DNA from: a virus
Lineage: Duplodnaviria; Heunggongvirae; Uroviricota; Caudoviricetes
Virus record (IMG/VR): IMGVR_UViG_3300030035_000037
Coordinates: 1-7,152 of that record
DNA: 7,152 bases
Direction: 5' to 3' (one strand)
The notes beneath the pieces are model-generated. The model was not told the origin of the DNA. It worked only from the letters and a program-made list of their open reading frames with translations, and ran no database searches. The position numbers and the translations under genes were made by a program. Positions 1-7,152 of this stretch are shown here, piece after piece. Every line of letters begins with the position of its first letter. Position 1 is the first letter of the stretch.

Positions 1-80
1 AACTGCAGGAACCAGTAGCCCGTTCCCACCGCTGACGTGGTGTATGACACACCTGTTGTGATTTTTTCCATCTGGTACAT
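1..80 (-). CDS. S: Class II holin (S21-like pinholin), N-terminal 26 codons only; gene continues beyond the window start
   Basis: Minus-strand translation from ATG (rc of 78-80) gives MYQMEKITTGVSYTTSAVGTGYWFLQ, closely resembling the recalled N-terminus of phage 21 S holin; dual-start Met1/Met4 as in holin/antiholin pairs; GGGAGA Shine-Dalgarno about 8 nt upstream. Not in the ORF track because it is truncated by the window edge. Confidence 0.7.
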   Translation of the reverse strand, partial: MYQMEKITTGVSYTTSAVGTGYWFLQ

Positions 81-155
81 ACCCCGTCTCCCGCAATCCG
101 GAAGCTCACAACAACAAGAGGGGCGTCAGCTCACACCGACAGCCCCTGCGCATGG

Positions 156-425
156 TTACATCATCATTTCGCCGTCAGGCTGAGGCTCACTGCTACCATC
201 AGGCTGAGACCCGACGCCATCTGAAACAGCACTGTCATCCGCAATGCCTTCCGGCTCCGGAACAGTCGGTGCGCCCAGCAGTTCATCCAGAATGGCATCC
301 ACTTCTGCATCAAGACGCGCCTCAAGGTTCTGCCGAAGTTGCTGTTTCAGTGCGCTTCTGACTTCTTCAGAGCGCAGGACTTCCTTCACTGCTTCAGCAG
401 TGACCAGCGATTTTATTTCTGACAT
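156..425 (-). CDS. Hypothetical small protein (89 aa) with a helical N-terminal half and a highly acidic Asp/Glu/Ser/Pro-rich tail
   Basis: ORF-track frame 156..539 begins at a TTG; the first ATG is at 425 (MSEIKSLVTAEAVKEVLRSEE...), with a weak GAGAAA Shine-Dalgarno. Sits between the esterase and the holin. No recognisable motif. Confidence 0.45.
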   Translation of the reverse strand: MSEIKSLVTAEAVKEVLRSEEVRSALKQQLRQNLEARLDAEVDAILDELLGAPTVPEPEGIADDSAVSDGVGSQPDGSSEPQPDGEMMM

Positions 426-462
426 GGTATTTTCTCGTTGAAAGGTGTTGTTAAGAAAGTTG

Positions 463-645
463 CTACGGAATGAGAGGCTCTTCGGGTTTTGTTCCGGCTG
501 ACTGACTGGCACTGATTTTCTCAGCGGCCCTTTTGTCAATCTGTCTGCGCCAGAAATCTCTCACGACTCTGTACCCACCCGAAAGAAGATACAGCACACA
601 GACCGCCGTACAGAAGTACAGCATCACCTGATGAATAAATGTCAT
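463..645 (-). CDS. Hypothetical small single-pass membrane protein (60 aa)
   Basis: ATG at 645; hydrophobic stretch FIHQVMLYFCTAVCVLYLL followed by a basic cluster RVVRDFWRRQIDKR (positive-inside); weak ribosome-binding site. Confidence 0.4.
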   Translation of the reverse strand: MTFIHQVMLYFCTAVCVLYLLSGGYRVVRDFWRRQIDKRAAEKISASQSAGTKPEEPLIP

Positions 646-663
646 AATTTCTTACCGTTATGG

Positions 664-692
664 TTGACAATGAGAATTGTTTTCATTTAAAA
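664..692 (+). promoter_or_regulatory. Candidate sigma70 promoter on the plus strand, antisense to the late operon
   Basis: Perfect -35 TTGACA at 664-669; -10-like TTTAAA/TTAAAA at 686-692 with a 16-17 nt spacer; predicted start near 698-700. Confidence 0.3.
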
Positions 693-742
693 AACCAATG
701 TACGAAAGCATCTTTTCTTTACATTCTCCATTGGGATTACCT

Positions 743-779
743 CCGCCAGCTTCCATTCCTGCCGCTGGCGGCTTTTTTT
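743..779 (+). terminator. Rho-independent terminator on the plus strand
   Basis: 8-bp GC-rich stem CCGCCAGC (743-750) / GCTGGCGG (764-771) with a 13-nt loop, followed by TTTTTTT at 772-778. On the minus strand there is no U-tract after the hairpin. Confidence 0.45.
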
Positions 780-784
780 AGCAA

Positions 785-2650
785 TTATGCGGCTGCTCCA
801 GCTTTGTTTGCTTTAACTTCCACCGTATCAATAAGTACAGGGTAGGTTTCTGCACTACCTGTAATATCCGTAATGACAAACCTGTTGAGTCCATTAGCAG
901 TATTGGCCCATTTCACCAGGTCAAACGCCTGTCCATCCACACCATCAAGCACCGGAGTAACATTAATGCTGTTACTGCCCTTAAATTTAAATGCAAGCGT
1001 ATGCCAGTCATGGTCGAATGCGCCAAACGTGCCAAGTTCTTTTTGTTGATTAACTGTATGATGGTATGCAACATTAATACTGGCTTTATCTGTCTGGACA
1101 AAGAAAGAACTCAGATGGCCTTCACCACCCTCACCCGGCCATTCCGCTATTCGCCAGTACAAACCAAAGGCATACTTGTTTCTGGTTGTCTCAAGATTGA
1201 CGTTTTCGGGGATTTTAAACCGGACAGCAATTTCCCCGCCTTTTTCCAGTAAAAGTTTTGCCTTGTCTGCAGCAATATCACAGTACATTGACCAGGATTT
1301 CGCGCTGTTATTTTTCTCAATTCGCAGAGCTTTATTGCCGCTGTCATCAACCAGTGTGCGTCTGCCATACATACCGTCCCAGCCATAAGGTTTCAGCTGA
1401 TTGTCTGTAGCTTTTTTGGCATCGTAAAAAATTACAGACTCTGAGGTGGTAACCGGCCTGTCTGGAACAACCACCCCGGCAGTACCATTAACAAACGCAG
1501 AAGACTTACCCGCGCAGCTCAGAATCGCCGTTGCCAGACGGTCGGAAATAATCCCACGGCGAGCCCATGAACTGAAATGGCTCGCCCTGTCCTGTGACGT
1601 CCAGGTGGCTGAGCTGTCACGCCATTTCGAACCGTAATAACCGATACCCGGAATGTCCGGGTCTTCTTCCGGTTTGTTCGTCGGCACATTCACCCCGTTC
1701 TCATCGGTCATGAACGGTACGAAATGGATATTCTTTTCCGTTTTATTTTTATAGCTGCCGTACACCGTCTGGTACGTGGATTCGTTCTTCTGCTTCCAGA
1801 AATACGTCGTGTCCCCGCATATCCAGGGAACACCGCCAGCAGAGCCACCGACGCACTGGCCTGCCATATCCGCCAGGTCTGCACGGAATTTATCAACCAG
1901 CGCACCAAACTGTGCGGCATGATTTGCCGGCGTACCGCCAAAATCAAATTCCCCCTGCATCCACACCACGGCAAACAGCACATTTTTCGGGTTCTTCTCC
2001 AGTGCCGCTTTTGTTCGACCGATAAGGTCCTTATACAGCGGCTTGTCCACACCCCAGCGGGTTGAATTCTCCGAGGCACCACTCGCGTCACTGTATGTGC
2101 CATCAGCTCCGGTGGTGAACGCTGAACCACCACGACAGCACGGAACCAGCAGAATGCCCGCATTCGCCGGTATAAACGGCAGCAGTTTTTTGGCGATATG
2201 CAGCCCCTGCCCCACGGTTCCGTACTGCCCCTTTGACAGGTCCGCTTTCGGATGGTTAAGACGGCTCATGTCCTGCACATCATGCAGACAATGGTCCGCC
2301 GGAATGATGTCGTTATATTTGCATGCTGCACCGCCCGGTGTCACCGTACTGCGACGCGCCAGTTGCTTAATACGCGGGTCCGGACGGTCATATGTCCCCG
2401 GCAGCGGAAGGCCTTCACCATACGACATGCCGTTTGACTGCCCTGCCAGAACCACAACAAAGTAATACTCCGGGTCGCTGGTGGCGCTGATTACTGCACC
2501 TTCTGCTGCAATCGCCTGCATCAGAGTATAAGGGGTTATGGCCACCGGACTACCAAACGGCTGCCAGCCCTCTTTCAGTTTATGTGTCAGCTTTTCCGCA
2601 AGATCTGACGGCGACGCCGCCCTGACAACATCATAGTGTTTAAATGCCAT
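785..2650 (-). CDS. nanS-p: Prophage-encoded sialate 9-O-acetylesterase (NanS-p type; N-terminal DUF1737-like region, SGNH/SASA esterase core, C-terminal carbohydrate-binding region)
   Basis: 621-626 aa ORF; GQSNGMSYGEG motif typical of SASA/SGNH esterases; conserved position downstream of the toxin/moron site and upstream of lysis genes in Stx-type phages. ORF-track start is 2665 (MVERTM...); ATG at 2650 (MAFKHYDVV...) is preferred because GGA lies 7 nt upstream. Confidence 0.88.
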   Translation of the reverse strand: MAFKHYDVVRAASPSDLAEKLTHKLKEGWQPFGSPVAITPYTLMQAIAAEGAVISATSDPEYYFVVVLAGQSNGMSYGEGLPLPGTYDRPDPRIKQLARRSTVTPGGAACKYNDIIPADHCLHDVQDMSRLNHPKADLSKGQYGTVGQGLHIAKKLLPFIPANAGILLVPCCRGGSAFTTGADGTYSDASGASENSTRWGVDKPLYKDLIGRTKAALEKNPKNVLFAVVWMQGEFDFGGTPANHAAQFGALVDKFRADLADMAGQCVGGSAGGVPWICGDTTYFWKQKNESTYQTVYGSYKNKTEKNIHFVPFMTDENGVNVPTNKPEEDPDIPGIGYYGSKWRDSSATWTSQDRASHFSSWARRGIISDRLATAILSCAGKSSAFVNGTAGVVVPDRPVTTSESVIFYDAKKATDNQLKPYGWDGMYGRRTLVDDSGNKALRIEKNNSAKSWSMYCDIAADKAKLLLEKGGEIAVRFKIPENVNLETTRNKYAFGLYWRIAEWPGEGGEGHLSSFFVQTDKASINVAYHHTVNQQKELGTFGAFDHDWHTLAFKFKGSNSINVTPVLDGVDGQAFDLVKWANTANGLNRFVITDITGSAETYPVLIDTVEVKANKAGAAA

Positions 2651-2843
2651 GGTTCTTTCCACCATCTGAAAAATGATTCTTTAAAATACCTGACATGTAA
2701 TACAGAAAAAACACAAAACCATACCTTAAATAAAAACCTCATCATCAAGCAGATATGCATGGATAAACTACAAGACGAGATATAAACCACCCTGCATTTA
2801 AATAAACAATAAACAACATCAGAAAAATAATTCTGCTCTATGG

Positions 2844-2870
2844 TTTACATTCAAAAATATCATTTATACT
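2844..2870 (+). promoter_or_regulatory. Candidate sigma70 promoter for the plus-strand cargo ORF
   Basis: -35 TTTACA (2844-2849) and -10 TATACT (2865-2870); spacer is 15 nt, which is short, so this is a weak call. Confidence 0.3.
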
Positions 2871-2910
2871 TTTCAGAACATCACCAGCAATGCATAAACA
2901 AGGAAACCAA

Positions 2911-3246
2911 ATGAAGTGGATTGTGATTGATACAGTTATCCAGCCATCATGCGGAATATCTTTTTCAGTCATATGGAGTAAAATAAAATTAATAATCTGG
3001 TATCAATCGGATGCTTTCTTACCTCCTGAAAGTATATTTACACTGACTCACACAGGCATCATGCTCAATAACAAAGTGCTACCTGTAACCATTTACAACG
3101 TAGTACCATTCAATAAAACATTCTGGAATTTAATCAAAAACAGCCAGGAATGCCCTACAAATACAGATAACGTATTGAATGAATGCTTTAATAACCGTTG
3201 CACTCTGCAAATATGTCCTTATGGGCTAAAACAACAAAGTCCATAA
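2911..3246 (+). CDS. Orphan hypothetical protein (111 aa) in an AT-rich island, opposite strand to the phage late operon; moron/cargo gene candidate
   Basis: ATG at 2911 with AGGA 6 nt upstream (the ORF-track start at 2890 lacks a ribosome-binding site); more than 110 open codons in visibly AT-rich DNA is unlikely by chance; 6 of 13 Ile codons are the rare ATA; four Cys cluster in the C-terminal 30 residues (C-x10-C-x4-C-x4-C). No family recognised. Confidence 0.5.
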
Positions 3247-3282
3247 GGAGTTTACTCACATCTGACAAAATCAATATAAACA

Positions 3283-3302
3283 GCCCCTCCGGAGAGGGGC
3301 TG
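3283..3302. terminator. Perfect 8-bp GC-rich stem-loop bounding the AT-rich island; possible terminator or mRNA 3' stabiliser for the cargo ORF
   Basis: AGCCCCTC cgga GAGGGGCT at 3283-3302, 37 nt after the cargo ORF stop; no clean U-tract on either strand. Confidence 0.35.
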
Positions 3303-3498
3303 GAGAGTGGCGCTATGTGCCATTGCATGGTGCCGGGTGCCTCCCGGTGAATTCAGTACCAGCACCTGAATCCGCGATTATCCCATATACCTACTCGCTG
3401 ATTGCCCCTCCGCACAGGGGGATTCACCATGCCAGTTTCTTTTAACAAACTCCCCGCAAACCAGACAACAGTCAACCGCCTGAATTGTGAGACATTTA

Positions 3499-3524
3499 AA
3501 AAAAAGGCCCGCAAAAGCGAGCCA
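3499..3524 (-). terminator. Rho-independent terminator of the tRNA operon (minus strand)
   Basis: Minus-strand GGCTCGC tttt GCGGGCC (3524..3507) followed by eight U (rc of A-run 3499-3506); begins 14 nt after the 3' end of the last tRNA. Confidence 0.7.
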
Positions 3525-3537
3525 GGGAAAATAAGTG

Positions 3538-3614
3538 TGGCGCGTTGTACTGGATTCGAACCAGTGACCGATTGCTTAGAAGGCAATTGCTCTGTCCGGC
3601 TGAGCTAACAACGC
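3538..3614 (-). tRNA. argO: tRNA-Arg, anticodon TCT (reads AGA)
   Basis: Manual fold of the minus strand: 7-bp perfect acceptor GCGTTGT/ACAACGC, D-arm GCTC..GAGC, anticodon loop CTTCTAA, T-loop TTCGAAT, encoded CCA. Gene symbol assigned only from the conserved ileZ-argN-argO order of Stx-type phages, recalled from memory. Confidence 0.9.
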
Positions 3615-3628
3615 AGGATACAGATAAT

Positions 3629-3704
3629 GAACCGCCTTCGGGGACCCGAACTCCGCGCAACCAGCTTCGAAGGCTGGCGCTCTTTCCTGATGAGCTAATG
3701 GCGG
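3629..3704 (-). tRNA. argN: tRNA-Arg, anticodon TCG; atypical (possibly divergent or degenerate)
   Basis: Manual fold: acceptor CCGCCAT/AAGGCGG (6 of 7 pairs), D-arm GCTC..GAGC, anticodon stem CCAGC/GCTGG with loop CTTCGAA, T-arm CGGAG-TTCGGGT-CCCCG (one A-C mismatch, G at the usually invariant A58), 3' TCA instead of encoded CCA. Exact 3' end is uncertain (3629-3631). Confidence 0.6.
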
Positions 3705-3711
3705 TATGTGA

Positions 3712-3787
3712 TGGTGGCCCTTGCTGGATTTGAACCAGCGACCTGGCGATTATGAGTCGCTCGCTCTCACCACTGAGCTAAAGGGCC
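3712..3787 (-). tRNA. ileZ: tRNA-Ile2 type, anticodon CAT (lysidine-dependent AUA decoder); a tool may call it tRNA-Met
   Basis: Manual fold: perfect acceptor GGCCCTT/AAGGGCC, anticodon loop CTCATAA, T-loop TTCAAAT, encoded CCA; overall very close to the recalled E. coli ileX sequence. Confidence 0.88.
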
Positions 3788-3796
3788 GGGAGCAGA

Positions 3797-3825
3797 ATAA
3801 TAATGGTGCGTAATTAATTCTGCAA
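3797..3825 (-). promoter_or_regulatory. Candidate sigma70 promoter for the tRNA operon
   Basis: Minus strand: -35 TTGCAG (3825..3820), 17-nt spacer, -10 TATTAT (3802..3797); predicted start 2-4 nt upstream of the mature 5' end of the first tRNA. Confidence 0.45.
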
Positions 3826-3836
3826 TCTCATCCGTT

Positions 3837-4886
3837 TCAAACGATTAAATCCTGAACTTCCCTGACTGTCTGCTCAAAACGTCCTGTCTCCAGTTCAACG
3901 CCAATCGCACGACGCCCGAGCGCCAGTGCCGCTTTTACCGTTGAACCCGACCCCATGAAAAAATCCGCAACCAGATCACCAGGACGACTGCTTGCGCTGA
4001 TTATCTGCTGCAGCATTTCTGCCGGTTTTTCGCACGGATGTTTCCCGGGATAGAACTGCACCGGTTTATGTGTCCACACATCCGTGTACGGCACCTGCGC
4101 CGTCACACCAAAATACCGCCGCAGATGTTTATATTCACTCTGCAGCTCCGCATACTGTCGGTTCAGTGAAGTATACGTATCCACCAGCTGGTGGTGGGGC
4201 TTTTCCAGTTCCCCCCGCTGATGCTTCTCTTCTGCCACCCTGGCAAACAGTGCCTGTAATTTCAGATAATCGCTTTCGTTCGGCAACTGCCACTGACTGG
4301 CACTGAACCAGTGCGACACCATGTTTTTCTTTCCTGTGGCATCTGCAATCTGTTTTGCCGTTATCCCCAGGGCCGCGCATGCATCACGAAAGTAAGAAAT
4401 CAGCGGGGCCATCACATGCTGTTTCAGTGCCCTGCCCTTCGCCTCATACCCGGCATCTTTCGGACGATACGGCCCCTGATAATGTTCCGCGAACAGAATG
4501 CGCTCTGTGGCGGGGAAATACGCCCGCAGGCTTTCCTTGTTGCACCCGTTCCAGCGTCCGGAAGGCTTCGCCCAGATAATATGGTTCAGCACACTGAAGC
4601 GTTCACGCATCATGATTTCGATATCAGATGCCAGGCGATGACCACAGAACAGGTAAAGACTTCCGGCAGGTTTCAGCACCCGCCAGAACTGCGCCAGACA
4701 CTGGTCCAGCCACTTCAGGTAATCATCGTCGCCCTTCCACTGGTTATCCCAGCCCTCAGGCTTCACTTTAAAGTACGGCGGGTCCGTGACTATCAGGTCA
4801 ACAGAATTTTCGGGTAACGACCGGATAAATTCCAGGCAGTCGGCGTTGATTAACTCACAACTGGATATTTTTACAGTATTAAGCAT
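3837..4886 (-). CDS. DNA methyltransferase, beta-class (motif IV before motif I), predicted N6-adenine specific; orphan (no cognate nuclease in window)
   Basis: 349 aa; SVDLIVTDPPY near the N-terminus (DPPY favours N6-adenine over N4-cytosine SPPY); AdoMet motif DFFMGSGST near the C-terminus; architecture of the N6_N4_Mtase family. Weak Shine-Dalgarno; a GATC overlaps the start region at 4887-4890. Confidence 0.9.
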   Translation of the reverse strand: MLNTVKISSCELINADCLEFIRSLPENSVDLIVTDPPYFKVKPEGWDNQWKGDDDYLKWLDQCLAQFWRVLKPAGSLYLFCGHRLASDIEIMMRERFSVLNHIIWAKPSGRWNGCNKESLRAYFPATERILFAEHYQGPYRPKDAGYEAKGRALKQHVMAPLISYFRDACAALGITAKQIADATGKKNMVSHWFSASQWQLPNESDYLKLQALFARVAEEKHQRGELEKPHHQLVDTYTSLNRQYAELQSEYKHLRRYFGVTAQVPYTDVWTHKPVQFYPGKHPCEKPAEMLQQIISASSRPGDLVADFFMGSGSTVKAALALGRRAIGVELETGRFEQTVREVQDLIV

Positions 4887-4980
4887 GGATCATTAAGCCT
4901 GTCTCTGATAGGCTCATTCTGCTTTTGCGCAAAGCAGTGGGCCTGAGGTTTGCTTGTGAACCCAACGCATGAGCAGATGG

Positions 4981-5007
4981 CTGGTGGGTGCCCCTAACAC
5001 CCACCAG
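4981..5007 (-). other. Perfect 10-bp GC-rich inverted repeat with 7-nt loop in the methyltransferase 5' leader
   Basis: CTGGTGGGTG ccccTaa CACCCACCAG at 4981-5007; no U-tract on either strand, so not a canonical intrinsic terminator. Confidence 0.5.
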
Positions 5008-5026
5008 CCGCCCATTTACCACAAAT
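5008..5026 (-). repeat. Second, truncated copy of the pR' -10 core (ATTTGTGGTAAAT followed directly by GGGCGG)
   Basis: Minus strand 5026..5008 ATTTGTGGTAAATGGGCGG versus pR' (5441..5411) ATCTGTGGTAAAT-TTGCTCTAACGAT-GGGCG: 12 of 13 identical then GGGCG, with the 13-nt initial transcribed segment absent. Confidence 0.55.
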
Positions 5027-5050
5027 AAAAAAGCCTTCACTGCGGAAGGC
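5021..5050 (-). terminator. Rho-independent terminator after the small winged-helix-like ORF
   Basis: Minus strand GCCTTC cgcagt GAAGGC (5050..5033) followed by TTTTTTATTTGT (5032..5021); the ORF stop codon (5037-5039) lies inside the stem. Confidence 0.6.
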
Positions 5051-5234
5051 GTCTGTAACAACCGAACTGATAGTCTGCCAGACCCGCCATAACCAGCTGG
5101 GTCAGTATTAACTGGCAGCGTTCGCGTGAAAGGTAAGTATTCTGTGCAATCTCCCCGACTGTCGCCGGTTCGGTAACGCTTAATTCATTAAACACTACTC
5201 TGGCGGTTTCTGTCATATCCTGCTGTTTTAGCAT
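5037..5234 (-). CDS. Small hypothetical protein (65 aa) with a predicted winged-helix/HTH-like segment; possible DNA-binding regulator
   Basis: ATG at 5234 preceded by AAGGGA; ORF-track version 5037..5321 starts at a GTG and is less likely. Segment TVGEIAQNTYLSRERCQLILTQLVMAGLA has the pattern of a winged-helix recognition region (PapI/FaeA- or MarR-like); weak, pattern-only assignment. Confidence 0.45.
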   Translation of the reverse strand: MLKQQDMTETARVVFNELSVTEPATVGEIAQNTYLSRERCQLILTQLVMAGLADYQFGCYRRLPQ

Positions 5235-5354
5235 GTCTTTTTCCCTTTTCCGGTTAACGTGACACACCAATAACTCTTGTCGAAAAAGCCAGCAAGCTGA
5301 AAGACAGGTATTCACCGCCACCAGCGCGTTTACTGTACTGACGCGATTTCAGTC

Positions 5355-5378
5355 ATAAAAAACCCGCCAGGCGGCGGG
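5355..5378 (-). terminator. tR'-like Rho-independent terminator downstream of pR'
   Basis: Minus strand CCCGCC gcct GGCGGG (5378..5363) followed by TTTTTTAT (5362..5355). Confidence 0.7.
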
Positions 5379-5421
5379 GTGTAAAAAATCTTCTAACGTC
5401 AGGCATAAAACGCCCATCGTT
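5355..5421 (-). ncRNA. Predicted short pR' leader transcript (about 65 nt), analogous to lambda 6S RNA / the StxS sRNA of Stx phages
   Basis: Predicted start at A 5421 (7 nt after the -10) and tR' U-tract ending near 5355; contains an A/U-rich single-stranded stretch before the terminator hairpin. Existence inferred from promoter plus terminator only. Confidence 0.5.
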
Positions 5422-5455
5422 AGAGCAAATTTACCACAGATTCGGGAAAAATCAA
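5416..5455 (-). promoter_or_regulatory. Late promoter pR' (lambda-like) with extended -10 and promoter-proximal pause element; presumed Q engagement site
   Basis: Minus strand -35 TTGATT (5455..5450), 16-nt spacer, TGg-TAAATT extended -10 (5433..5428), then TGCTCT and AACGATGGG at +1 onward; the -10 plus AACGAT arrangement matches lambda pR' as recalled from memory. Lies 6-45 nt downstream of the Q stop codon. Confidence 0.65.
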
Positions 5456-5460
5456 CAACA

Positions 5461-6282
5461 CTATCGCGTTACCCTCTTTAACTGCCGCTCCGCCCATGCC
5501 TCTTCAATGTCAAACCGAACCACCAACGTATCGTAAAAGCGTTTCACTGATTTTTTCCACGTATCAAGCGTGATAGCACTCGTCACTTTGCATATGGCAT
5601 TAAATGCCTCCGTTGATGGTAGTCTTTCACAGCCACGACCACCACAACGCTGGCAGTCTCTGATAACAGGCATACCACGTTTTACCGACTCTTCACGATG
5701 AATGGCGACACCACGCCCACGGCAATCCTTACAGGCGGTGGAAACCTCACCCTTTCCGCCACACTCCGGACAGGCAACTTTTACCACCTCCCTGACTTTT
5801 TTCCATTCTTCCCAGTAAGACGGATACACACCTTTCGTACACTTTGCCCATACCGGCGGCTTACCATCCGGATACTGGACCTTGTTTGTAAAAACTACGC
5901 TTTCAATAAATTTTTCCCCATAGCAACAAGGGCACTGCTTTTTACTCGCTGCGCTGCGGGCATAATCCTCAAAAGCGTACGAAGCCATAATGCGCATCAC
6001 TACCGGTTTTATTTCTGCCGGGAGTTTTCTTAACGCCGCCACGCGATCACACCGACTGAGTGCATATTCTGTCAGCAATTCTGTTGCCCGCTCTCTGTCA
6101 TTCATACTAATGCCCATTTTCCCAAGGAACGCAGAAAACCCCATCTCAGCCCGATTCTGTGTCATGCCCTGCGCGGCCATCACATCAGTGATACTCAGCG
6201 CATCTTTCGACGTTGAGGCCGATGCATCAGTCAGGCCGGGGGATTTTGGGGAGTAGTATTTCGGTAAATCTTCCAGTTTCAT
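5461..6282 (-). CDS. Q: Late-gene antitermination protein Q, lambda-Q family, with an enlarged Cys-rich zinc-binding region
   Basis: 273 aa; blocks matching recalled lambda Q: YSPKSP, DVMAAQGM, ASYAFEDYARSAA, C-terminal LKRVTR; multiple CxxC pairs; located immediately upstream of the lambda-like pR'; start overlaps the rusA stop (ATGA). Confidence 0.88.
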   Translation of the reverse strand: MKLEDLPKYYSPKSPGLTDASASTSKDALSITDVMAAQGMTQNRAEMGFSAFLGKMGISMNDRERATELLTEYALSRCDRVAALRKLPAEIKPVVMRIMASYAFEDYARSAASKKQCPCCYGEKFIESVVFTNKVQYPDGKPPVWAKCTKGVYPSYWEEWKKVREVVKVACPECGGKGEVSTACKDCRGRGVAIHREESVKRGMPVIRDCQRCGGRGCERLPSTEAFNAICKVTSAITLDTWKKSVKRFYDTLVVRFDIEEAWAERQLKRVTR

Positions 6283-6659
6283 TTTTTGACCTGCCCTTCA
6301 AGCATTATGGGGTAAATCTTCACCCCCAGACGTCCACCAGATACTGGCTGAGCACGAACGATATTGATTTCATCAAACTGCTCATCGTCCATTAGCAACC
6401 CCGCATGCGTCAGCGCATCCAGCGGCGCTTTCAGAATATTGTCCAGGTCACGGCGGCGCTTATCCGGTGGTTCTGCAATAATTTTTATTGCCAACCTTCC
6501 GGACAGGCTTAATTTCAGCCGCTGCTGGCGAACAATAAGCGCCACTGCCCGGCGATAACGCTCCCCGGCTTTTGATACAAAATATGTGCTGCCACGACGA
6601 CGCCAGTAAGTGTTCACCGTTGGCGGGTAAGGCAAAACAAATTCTATGCGTTCAGTCAT
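6279..6659 (-). CDS. rusA: Crossover junction endodeoxyribonuclease RusA (Holliday junction resolvase)
   Basis: 126 aa; PYPPTVNTYWRRRG near the N-terminus and RRRDLDNILKAPLDALTHAGLLMDD acidic catalytic region match the RusA family pattern; canonical position just upstream of Q. Confidence 0.88.
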   Translation of the reverse strand: MTERIEFVLPYPPTVNTYWRRRGSTYFVSKAGERYRRAVALIVRQQRLKLSLSGRLAIKIIAEPPDKRRRDLDNILKAPLDALTHAGLLMDDEQFDEINIVRAQPVSGGRLGVKIYPIMLEGQVKK

Positions 6660-7152
6660 TTATGCTTTCCACTTCAAAACACCCGAATTTCTCGCGTGCA
6701 TTAAAAAACGAATCAGCAACAACAGCTGGCTGCCGTGTTTTTCTTCAAAATCTTTTACCCCGGCGTGTAGTTCGCTATGGCATTTACGGCACAGCGGAAT
6801 AACAAACAAATCATCAGCCTTTGTTCCCATCCCTCCCAGTCCATGACCAATGATGTGATGCGGATCATCTGCCTGATTGCCACACGTCATGCATTTCTGC
6901 GTTTTTACCCAACGCGTGTATACAGGCATCTCTTCCCGTTGTGATTTCTGGCGCTGGAGATACTGAGCCGGTGACTCCGGATCAACGGCAATGCTGACCA
7001 CCGTCTTTTCCTGTGGCGGGTTTTGCTGGTGGGCGTGAGGCAGCGGCGCAAGATTTTTTGTGCGCTGCTTCAGTATGCTGGTGGCGGTCTGCTCTCCCGG
7101 TACGATGTCGCTTTCACGGTACATTGAGCGGATTTTTTCCGCACGCAACCCC
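6660..7152 (-). CDS. Cys/His-rich HNH-motif protein (DUF968/YdfU-like), C-terminal part; likely continues beyond the window end
   Basis: Frame is open to the right window edge; C-terminal motif CMTCGNQADDPHHIIGHG...IPLCRKCHSELH (CxxC ... HH ... CxxCH) resembles an HNH zinc-binding nuclease fold; stop TAA abuts the rusA ATG. Family name is from memory and unverified. Confidence 0.55.
   Translation of the reverse strand, partial: GLRAEKIRSMYRESDIVPGEQTATSILKQRTKNLAPLPHAHQQNPPQEKTVVSIAVDPESPAQYLQRQKSQREEMPVYTRWVKTQKCMTCGNQADDPHHIIGHGLGGMGTKADDLFVIPLCRKCHSELHAGVKDFEEKHGSQLLLLIRFLMHARNSGVLKWKA

Follow-up and report, generated by a model that had tools for sequence, protein, structure and literature searches.

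The stretch of viral DNA analysed here, below called the window, covers 7,152 nucleotides (nt) (positions 1 to 7,152 of the IMG/VR virus record IMGVR_UViG_3300030035_000037, Caudoviricetes) and represents the late-regulatory region of a lambdoid prophage, in which all relevant genes are located on the minus strand. Between a tR'-like terminator and a cluster of tRNA genes, it contains a gene for a small protein of 65 amino acids (aa), which is followed by a gene for an N6-adenine methyltransferase. The methyltransferase is almost certainly an M.EcoGII-type enzyme, and its start codon is preceded by a conserved, structured RNA leader, which we consider quite likely to be a functional cis-element. 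With slightly better than even confidence, we propose that the locus is a hyper-methylation cassette of lambdoid prophages, in which the enzyme would be locked by several layers of control.

The product of the methyltransferase gene matches the Pfam family N6_N4_Mtase (PF01555, E=6e-44) over residues 29-340, and it shows the motif order of the beta class, with TDPPYF at residues 34-39 placed first and FFMGSGST at residues 309-316 placed last. Over its full length, it is identical to M.EcoGII at 331 of 350 positions (95%) when compared with the sequence in the supplement of PMC11551740, a reference text that was machine-read with a few obvious errors, so that the true identity is probably slightly higher. 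The approximately 17 substitutions are mostly located at residues 164-275. M.EcoGI and M.EcoGII are identical to each other at 333 of 349 positions, and the relatives with solved structures are M.RsrI, CcrM and M1.MboII. Both M.EcoGII and M.EcoGI, which are encoded by prophages of E. coli O104:H4 C227-11, are non-specific N6-adenine methyltransferases that act in any sequence context (Murray et al. 2018, PMC5778455). The enzyme in the window shares with them the beta-class order, the close identity, and the status of a prophage-borne orphan that lacks a cognate nuclease, and by homology the allele in the window would be expected to methylate adenine in any context as well. The family is also present in phiP27, in many Shiga toxin 2 (Stx2) phages, and in phage 1720a-02, whose very similar enzyme was noted by the authors of the M.EcoGII study (PMC5778455). 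Public records call the protein a "site-specific DNA-methyltransferase" despite its 95%-identical characterised homologue being explicitly non-specific.

Constitutive expression of M.EcoGII or M.EcoGI makes clones sick, and both enzymes are silent in the lysogen; the authors proposed that they are turned on at prophage induction and defeat restriction in the next host (PMC5778455). In two lysogens of Shiga toxin-producing E. coli, homologues at 92-93% similarity were predicted to be non-specific, and no methylated motif was detected beyond GATC and CTGCAG (PMC6602927), and a 2025 review groups M.EcoGII with Mom as "silent in lysogens and toxic" (PMC12707154). The enzyme itself is already known, as is its proposed role in the protection of progeny DNA. 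A preliminary description of the window, made from its letters, had correctly placed and described the 65-aa open reading frame (ORF) and a beta-class DPPY methyltransferase between tR' and the tRNA genes, but it had missed the homology to M.EcoGII as well as the fact that the best-conserved sequence of the locus is non-coding. Of the two roles that it offered for the enzyme, protection of progeny DNA is the published view for the M.EcoGII family, whereas epigenetic control is unlikely, given the activity on adenines in any context and the silence of such an enzyme in lysogens. As regards the methyltransferase, its expectation that the pair is switched on at induction agrees with the placement behind pR' and tR' and with the silence of the 95%-identical M.EcoGII in lysogens (PMC5778455, PMC6602927, PMC12707154). 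In several prophages (L005 at 5344-5500, L123, L102, L206, L279 and L293), the methyltransferase gene is internally deleted or truncated and the small ORF and the leader are kept. Such deletions and truncations would fit a scenario in which resident prophages are under selection to lose a toxic gene.

The leader of 131 nt that ends at the methyltransferase ATG is the best-conserved stretch of the locus, with 46 invariant columns in 33 sequences. Its mean identity to the window is 82%, compared to 70% for the DNA of the methyltransferase gene and 36% for the four-fold synonymous sites of that gene, which are saturated. The leader occupies most of the 150-nt spacer between the two genes, the length of which is almost constant (147-154 nt) in Enterobacteriaceae and Erwiniaceae. 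The folding energy of the spacer RNA in the window is -72.7 kcal/mol (z = -3.8), and none of 200 shuffled sequences was equally stable. The structure predicted from the alignment contains five helices in two domains, of which domain 1 (P1 and P2) is an interrupted 16-bp stem-loop at 4969-5015 and domain 2 is a compound stem at 4888-4961. The 3' strand of P3, the outermost helix of domain 2, corresponds to nucleotides -2 to -12 ahead of the methyltransferase ATG. The three hairpins and the weak Shine-Dalgarno (SD) sequence that had been noticed in the preliminary description are real, and they are part of this conserved leader.

The alignment of homologous leaders supports the predicted helices. 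Among 49 distinct leaders, 96.4% of the pair cells are standard pairs, versus 23-39% (about 35%) if the partners are slid, and 10 pairs show compensatory double changes, versus 3.1 +/- 1.3 in column shuffles (0/500). The frequent G-U pairs are compatible with the sense strand only. A covariance model (R1), built from 32 sequences, detects the leader at the methyltransferase ATG of 45 species loci out of 78; in 15 of the 45, the methyltransferase is intact but there is no small ORF. No R1 element was found elsewhere in the 789 kb that were searched. Furthermore, the DNA pattern of P3-P5 alone retrieved 120 viral contigs; the methyltransferase ATG is located exactly 34 nt beyond the pattern in 112 of these, and only two of the 113 contigs with enough downstream DNA lack it after the leader pattern. 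A search against Rfam 15 assigned the leader to no family, and the sole nearby match at E<=1 was P26 on the opposite strand (24 bits, compared to a gathering score of 36). The start region of the methyltransferase is also without a usable SD sequence, as the 20 nt preceding the ATG form, at best, an anti-SD duplex of -3.0 kcal/mol in the window and of -2.2 kcal/mol on average across 50 homologous leaders.

Other interpretations of the spacer were considered. A 33-aa ORF at 4914-5015, which has an invariant ATG, is not conserved as a peptide, since indels of 1 nt break its frame in relatives and the changes are pair-compensating. A split SD sequence, for which gene 38 of T4 is a precedent, could be brought to the AUG by domain 2, but this is not supported, as the duplex that the anti-SD forms with the purine run 5' of P3 is weak (mean -3.5 kcal/mol). 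The start site would be freed if the 3' strand of P1 paired with the 5' strand of P3; only 71% of the cells of this alternative helix pair, most sequences contain two central mismatches, and a single clade accounts for the covariation, so that we treat this helix as a lead only. The leader does not correspond to a known phage small RNA (sRNA), as the anti-sRNAs AgvB and AsxR map elsewhere, 3' of moron cargo (PMC4104026), and there is no Rfam match to the spacer. A Dam site, GATC, is almost invariant at positions -7 to -4 before the methyltransferase ATG (4887-4893 in the window, minus strand), where it is part of the 3' strand of P3, and a further GATC is present on the 5' side of the helix in some leaders. 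The near-invariance of this site may simply reflect helix P3.

The small gene is present in 60 of the 78 informative methyltransferase loci (one per species), which range from Escherichia to Providencia, Xenorhabdus and Photorhabdus with methyltransferase identities of 62-99%, and in approximately 103 of 115 viral contigs retrieved via the leader pattern. Each homologue with an inspected context is directly followed, in the same orientation, by a member of this methyltransferase family, irrespective of Q family and cargo. This synteny covers Klebsiella and Salmonella as well as the most distant members, which show 42-50% identity and are associated with different Q types. The small protein is thus a dedicated but dispensable partner of this methyltransferase family, and the synteny strongly backs the functional tie between the two that had been suggested from the window alone. 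The cases in which a small ORF lacks the methyltransferase are decay products: in L005, the methyltransferase is internally deleted, leaving the leader and 45 codons, and a few viral contigs are truncated. The only solid family assignment for the small protein is phrog_331, a PHROG of unspecified function, and no NCBIfam match was obtained for it. The family is small, with 334 clusters at 90% identity and only 61 representatives at 50% identity in a set of 1.8 billion proteins, and its members are all from Enterobacterales.

A winged-helix fold is predicted for the small protein with confidence. An AlphaFold2 model based on 18 homologues has a predicted local distance difference test (pLDDT) score of 92.9 and the topology H1-strand-H2-H3-beta hairpin wing, which is the canonical arrangement. 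The earlier pattern-based guess of a winged helix is therefore strongly supported by the model, while the sequence support is weak: the Pfam profile matches are below threshold for TrmB (E=0.003; 18.0 bits versus a cut-off of 25.6) and MarR_2 (14.7 versus 27), and the match to DprA_WH is likewise sub-threshold. We do not assign the protein to the TrmB or MarR families, as the scores are under the curated Pfam cut-offs, and only the generic winged-helix fold is in common; the small protein also lacks the dimerisation helices of MarR. A structure search with Foldseek identified generic winged helices only and no specific relative. The nearest structural neighbours are mostly transcriptional repressors (BlaI, ArsR, MarR), and the top matches include N-terminal winged-helix dimerisation domains of O-methyltransferases dependent on S-adenosylmethionine (SAM). 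In helix 3, which is unusually hydrophobic (CQLILTQLVMAGL), only L44, T45 and Q46 are invariant in the aligned homologues, and they form the recognition-helix segment LTQ. The protein contains two cysteines, at positions 40 and 59, neither of which is in a CxxC pair. Z-alpha domains, which bind Z-DNA or Z-RNA, are characterised by Asn and Tyr in helix 3 and by Pro-Pro-x-Trp in the wing, and these signature residues are not found in the small protein.

Homologues of the small ORF are named "hypothetical" or "TrmB family" in the databases, and a few are named "lipoprotein" or "DUF3927"; the NCBI name "TrmB family transcriptional regulator" rests on a sub-threshold match. In public annotations, the ORF is often 94-106 aa long and starts at an upstream GTG or ATG, whereas conservation supports the form of 63-65 aa. 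In the window, the 94-aa form would start with the GTG at 5321, and it was rejected because conservation begins at MLKQQDMT and the upstream frame differs between genera. In L021 from Kosakonia sacchari (3558-3797) and in L024 (3558-3797), the winged-helix gene is replaced by a 79-aa ORF with three CxxC pairs (MGICSGCAKPL...CPEC...CPAC), which is located just upstream of an intact leader and methyltransferase. This ORF could encode a zinc-ribbon substitute partner, reminiscent of Com. The records L024, L035, L036 and L017, which carry the Enterobacterales cassette, are titled Vagococcus, Chryseobacterium, Collinsella or Geobacteraceae metagenome-assembled genome, and they are probably contaminated or chimeric assemblies.

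Upstream of the small gene, the alignment revealed a second conserved non-coding element, here called motif 2, with the family consensus CTTGCTG-N11-CCAGAGTTATCTGTATGTCA, which is kept from Escherichia to Xenorhabdus. It occurs in one copy per locus and is restricted to loci with the small ORF, and the copy in the window has diverged by more than three bases from the consensus. No conserved RNA structure was detected in motif 2 with RNAalifold. Its geometry is promoter-like (TTGCTG, 17 bp, TAYNTG). A short inverted repeat, CAGA-N4-TCTG, is not retained in Xenorhabdus-type sequences, and there is no clear palindrome across lineages. At the other end of the gene, a terminator-like hairpin of variable sequence is located at the stop codon in most loci, and in divergent lineages a canonical terminator is placed between the two genes. 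With motif 2 on one side and the hairpin at the stop codon on the other, the small gene looks like a self-contained promoter-gene-terminator unit. Motif 2 may serve as a promoter or an operator, and it is the best candidate for an operator of the small protein itself.

The composite picture that we favour combines these elements as follows. The M.EcoGII-type enzyme would N6-methylate adenines everywhere, such that the progeny phage DNA becomes refractory to many restriction enzymes, and the gene would be locked in several layers because this activity harms the host chromosome. The first layer would be transcriptional, as the gene is preceded by pR' and by two terminators, namely tR' and the hairpin that closes the small ORF, and presumably only the Q-modified RNA polymerase would pass them, after induction. 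The second layer would be translational, with P3 pairing the 11 nucleotides before an AUG that lacks an SD sequence, such that P3 may repress translation or keep it intrinsically low. The third layer would be provided by the winged-helix protein, as a putative dedicated trans-acting accessory of the enzyme family; it would be made independently of the methyltransferase and might function as a negative safety catch or timer that binds its own control region and/or the leader. We lean towards such a negative or timing role for the product of an independently expressed unit because the small gene has its own control-like motif and terminator, because a terminator stands between the two genes, and because loci that lack the small gene retain an intact methyltransferase and leader. 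Such loci would be less easily explained if the small protein were an essential activator than if it were a negative or modulating factor that can be dispensed with.

Several observations weigh against this picture. Motif 2 has a G as the last base of its -10-like hexamer (TATTGG, TATCTG or TACATG), which is poor for sigma-70 and is rejected by the promoter scanner, so that an independent promoter is only putative. The small protein is slightly acidic overall by a hand count, which is unusual for a nucleic-acid binder. The 10 pairs with compensatory changes in the leader derive from a few clades, mainly Providencia/Morganella, Rosenbergiella and Salmonella, and were counted in an alignment that was fitted to the covariance model, and the role of such a leader could rather be to stabilise the mRNA or to promote translation. 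In addition, the spacer is only 73-105 nt long in Xenorhabdus/Photorhabdus and a Proteus-like lineage, where it contains a P2-like hairpin followed by a U-run, that is, a plain intrinsic terminator, and in one case a normal AAGGA SD sequence. As these loci have the small gene together with a short, plain spacer, the small protein cannot act solely through P3. In view of the short terminator spacer in the divergent lineages, the elaborate leader is a derived, Enterobacteriaceae-centred version of a terminator-containing spacer.

Among the alternatives, we first consider positive control of the kind exerted by the zinc-finger protein Com on mom in phage Mu, where the small protein would be made first from the late transcript, bind the leader RNA, open P3 and thereby activate, with a delay, the translation of the methyltransferase. 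We find this explanation rather unlikely. The position of P3 over the start region is what it would act upon, but 15 of the 45 leader-bearing species loci have an intact methyltransferase and no small gene, and lineages with the small gene can lack leader domain 2. Moreover, the two genes are parted by a 150-nt gap and a terminator-like hairpin, the small protein has no zinc finger, and motif 2 is left unaccounted for. A bolder version, to which we give a similarly low weight, is that the leader represents a cis-regulatory RNA of a new class, dedicated to the non-specific adenine methyltransferase, in which the invariant internal loops (GCGAACC, CCUAUCAGAG and CAAAAGCA) would form a pocket for a protein or for a small ligand such as SAM or S-adenosylhomocysteine (SAH), with the phrog_331 protein as trans-acting partner. 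Jointly, they would then represent a second, independently evolved translational switch of the com-mom type, in which a winged-helix RNA binder replaces the zinc finger and which times genome-wide adenine methylation at the induction of lambdoid phages, including Shiga-toxin phages.

A controller-type transcriptional module, in which the winged-helix protein would bind DNA operators, autoregulate its own promoter and control the transcription of the methyltransferase, is unlikely. Motif 2 would suit such a module in that it is unstructured, conserved at the sequence level, promoter-like in geometry and always found alongside the small gene, and so would the invariant LTQ segment in the recognition helix and the repressors among the structural neighbours. 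However, there is no promoter-like site between the small ORF and the methyltransferase gene, and the conserved spacer behaves as an RNA, as indicated by the G-U pairs, the compensatory changes and the single-base indels that break the frame of the 33-aa ORF. Nor is the small protein a controller protein by family or fold, a nuclease is lacking, and motif 2 has no clear palindrome across lineages.

It is more doubtful still that the target of the small protein is the methyltransferase itself or its product, rather than its expression, with the small protein serving as an inhibitor or antitoxin, as a guide of the enzyme to phage DNA, or as a reader of DNA that contains N6-methyladenine (m6A). 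An action of this kind would be in line with the occurrence of the phrog_331 family solely beside this enzyme, with the hydrophobic helix 3 and with the structural similarity to dimerisation domains of SAM-dependent O-methyltransferases, and m6A-sensing winged-helix domains are known from prokaryotes (PMC11037411); the composite picture, in contrast, also takes in motif 2 and the structured leader. That the linkage is passive, with the small ORF being an unrelated hitch-hiking moron and the spacer being kept at the DNA level as a recombination or module-boundary sequence, is equally improbable: the late regions of lambdoid phages are mosaic, the pair has variable neighbours (the Q type on one side; stx, IraM or TerB, for example, as cargo on the other), and the small gene is dispensable in about one quarter of the species loci, but the two genes stay linked down to identities of 42% for the small protein and 62% for the methyltransferase across several Q families, the 82% conservation of the spacer next to saturated synonymous sites argues for purifying selection and not recent exchange, the compensatory and G-U pairs are strand-specific, and the distance from the end of the leader to the ATG is fixed.

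The genomic context is that of a late operon (Table 1). The gene order in the window begins with a DUF968/HNH gene, which is interrupted by the end of the window, and RusA, followed by the gene for the antiterminator Q, which defines the start of the late operon. In alignments of homologous loci, a pR'-like pair is present at the equivalent position, ahead of a short terminated leader, and every aligned locus contains an equivalent GC hairpin with a T-run at the position of tR'. The TTGATT/TAAATT pair of the window was left unscored by the consensus promoter scanner, so that pR' is a putative promoter here. A promoter scan of 3400-5600 identified no sigma-70-like promoter. Annotations with the order Q, small ORF, methyltransferase and tRNA genes exist for thousands of E. 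coli prophages and many Stx2a/c/d phages as well as for phiP27 and phage 1720a-02. In many Stx2 phages, stx2AB follows directly downstream of the cassette. The orphan status of the methyltransferase, as proposed earlier, agrees with the ORF list and the Pfam search, which revealed no nuclease partner in the window, and with PADLOC, which returned methyltransferase models only. Nor is there a nuclease gene beside the pair in the related loci for which the gene content was listed. In phiP27 (L002, 5954-7183), a 409-aa gene of the GIY-YIG nuclease family is located between the Q-like gene and the small ORF; it appears to be unrelated and is absent from the other inspected loci.

Table 1. Positions of the cassette and of the neighbouring late-operon features in the window.
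Feature	Position	Strand	Description	Evidence
Gene for antiterminator Q	5461..6282	-	273 aa	Pfam PF03589 Antiterm, E=5e-51; phrog_127/25523 "anti-termination protein Q-like"
pR'-like late promoter	5428..5455	-	TTGATT-N16-TAAATT	Pattern read from the letters only
tR'-like strong intrinsic terminator	5357..5378	-	CCCGCCGCCTGGCGGG + T6	Terminator scan
Motif 2 (promoter/operator-like DNA motif before small ORF)	5259..5296	-	CTTGCTG-N12-AAGAGTTATTGGTGTGTCAC	Alignment of upstream regions
Gene for small protein (predicted winged helix)	5037..5234	-	65 aa; ATG 5234, stop 5037	phrog_331
Terminator-like hairpin over small ORF stop codon	5023..5050	-	GCCTTCCGCAGTGAAGGC + T6ATTT	Terminator scan
Conserved structured 5' leader	4887..5017	-	131 nt, ends at methyltransferase ATG	Covariance model R1, 129 bits, E ~5e-27 in window
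Leader domain 1	P1 5010-5015/4969-4974; P2 5000-5009/4979-4989	-		RNAalifold
Leader domain 2	P3 4952-4961/4888-4898; P4 4938-4944/4910-4916; P5 4919-4937	-		RNAalifold
Methyltransferase gene	3837..4886	-	349 aa; ATG 4886, stop 3837	Pfam PF01555
Three tRNA genes	3538..3787	-	CAT/Ile-type, Arg-TCG, Arg-TCT	ARAGORN; Rfam tRNA; RefSeq near-identical prophage
Terminator closing tRNA cluster	3506-3523	-		Terminator scan

The tRNA genes are located downstream of the methyltransferase on the same late transcript. The first of them is classified as tRNA-Met(CAT) by ARAGORN and as Ile in the RefSeq annotation. Just downstream of the terminator of the tRNA cluster, at 3272-3461 on the minus strand, there is a full-length match to the Rfam sRNA STnc100 (RF02076, 132 bits, E=8e-30). 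Convergent prophage sRNAs have been reported behind moron cargo, in a region that matches the position of STnc100 (PMC4104026). On the plus strand, an AT-rich ORF at 2890-3246 (approximately 34% GC) codes for an anti-adaptor of the IraM family (NCBIfam NF007393, 162 bits versus a cut-off of 121; phrog_4407). It is placed between the tRNA genes and a nanS-p-like esterase gene, in the slot that stx2AB occupies in Stx phages, and is an RpoS-stabilising moron of the prophage in the position of the toxin. The esterase gene (785-2665, minus strand) encodes a 626-aa protein with DUF1737, SASA esterase and DUF6645 domains, that is, a sialate O-acetylesterase of the nanS-p type, which is typical of the late regions of Stx phages, and is followed by small DUF1378 and DUF826 genes.

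M.EcoGII is widely used as a reagent for chromatin footprinting and RNA labelling, and it is the textbook phage "Trojan horse" against restriction. We found no description of the natural control of this toxic enzyme in the literature that could be searched. The M.EcoGII papers PMC5778455 and PMC7544214 do not describe the upstream small gene and the leader, and limited literature searches, including searches by protein accession, locus tag and PHROG number, revealed no description of the leader, motif 2 or the small protein. The small protein and both non-coding elements thus appear to be undescribed. As the cassette belongs to the same Q-dependent transcript as the tRNA genes and is located upstream of stx2AB in many Stx2 phages, its terminators and leader are part of the 5' region of the toxin transcript. 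If the leader proves to be a switch that responds to a protein or a ligand, it would represent a new class of regulatory RNA and a new case of convergent control of phage DNA-modification genes.

The cassette can be compared with several known systems. Controller (C) proteins of restriction-modification systems, for example C.PvuII and C.AhdI, are Xre-type helix-turn-helix dimers of approximately 80 aa, which bind palindromic C-boxes and time the expression of the nuclease. Similar to these, the small protein has a DNA-binding fold and is encoded beside a methyltransferase, with a conserved motif ahead of its own gene, but it differs in being a winged helix, in the absence of a nuclease, and in that motif 2 contains no clear palindrome. 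No Pfam match of the HTH_3/Xre type (PF01381) was obtained for the small protein at E<=0.1, and its placement among the C proteins, one of two affiliations offered in the preliminary description, is not upheld. The other affiliation was to PapI, which works together with Lrp at Dam GATC sites in fimbrial switches. PapI and FaeA are also small (approximately 70 aa), stand-alone winged-helix proteins linked to adenine methylation; however, the small protein shows no match to PF04703, PapI is not among the top structural neighbours listed, and the context of a fimbrial switch is absent, which speaks against a PapI-like regulator. A further comparison is with the prophage morons downstream of pR', which, according to the statement in PMC4104026 that cites Juhala et al. 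2000, are extra genes behind the Q-dependent late promoter that often have a promoter and a terminator of their own. The unit formed by the small ORF has this appearance, and relatives carry stx, IraM or TerB genes at the equivalent position, but unlike free-standing morons the small ORF is found only together with this methyltransferase family.

Judged by analogy, the closest functional counterpart is the com-mom operon of phage Mu, along with its relatives in Mu-like prophages, in which a Com-like gene precedes a non-specific adenine methyltransferase (Hin1523, Hia5, Nma1821; PMC3299994, PMC6483171), and the cassette appears to follow the same logic with different parts. In both systems, a toxic late enzyme that modifies DNA against restriction is silent in lysogens, and its gene is immediately preceded by one that encodes a small protein (approximately 40-65 aa). 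Sequestration of the start site in a stem is known for mom and is predicted here, with support from covariation, for P3 (-2 to -12). The parts differ in that the phrog_331 protein is a winged helix without the four-cysteine CxxC...CxxC zinc finger of Com, and in that the enzyme in the window is unrelated to Mom and belongs to the beta class, while Hin1523 belongs to the alpha class. The com and mom genes overlap, whereas the two genes of the cassette are separated by a spacer with a terminator-like hairpin and a leader that is far larger than that of com-mom, and the partner gene, unlike com, is missing from one quarter of the loci.

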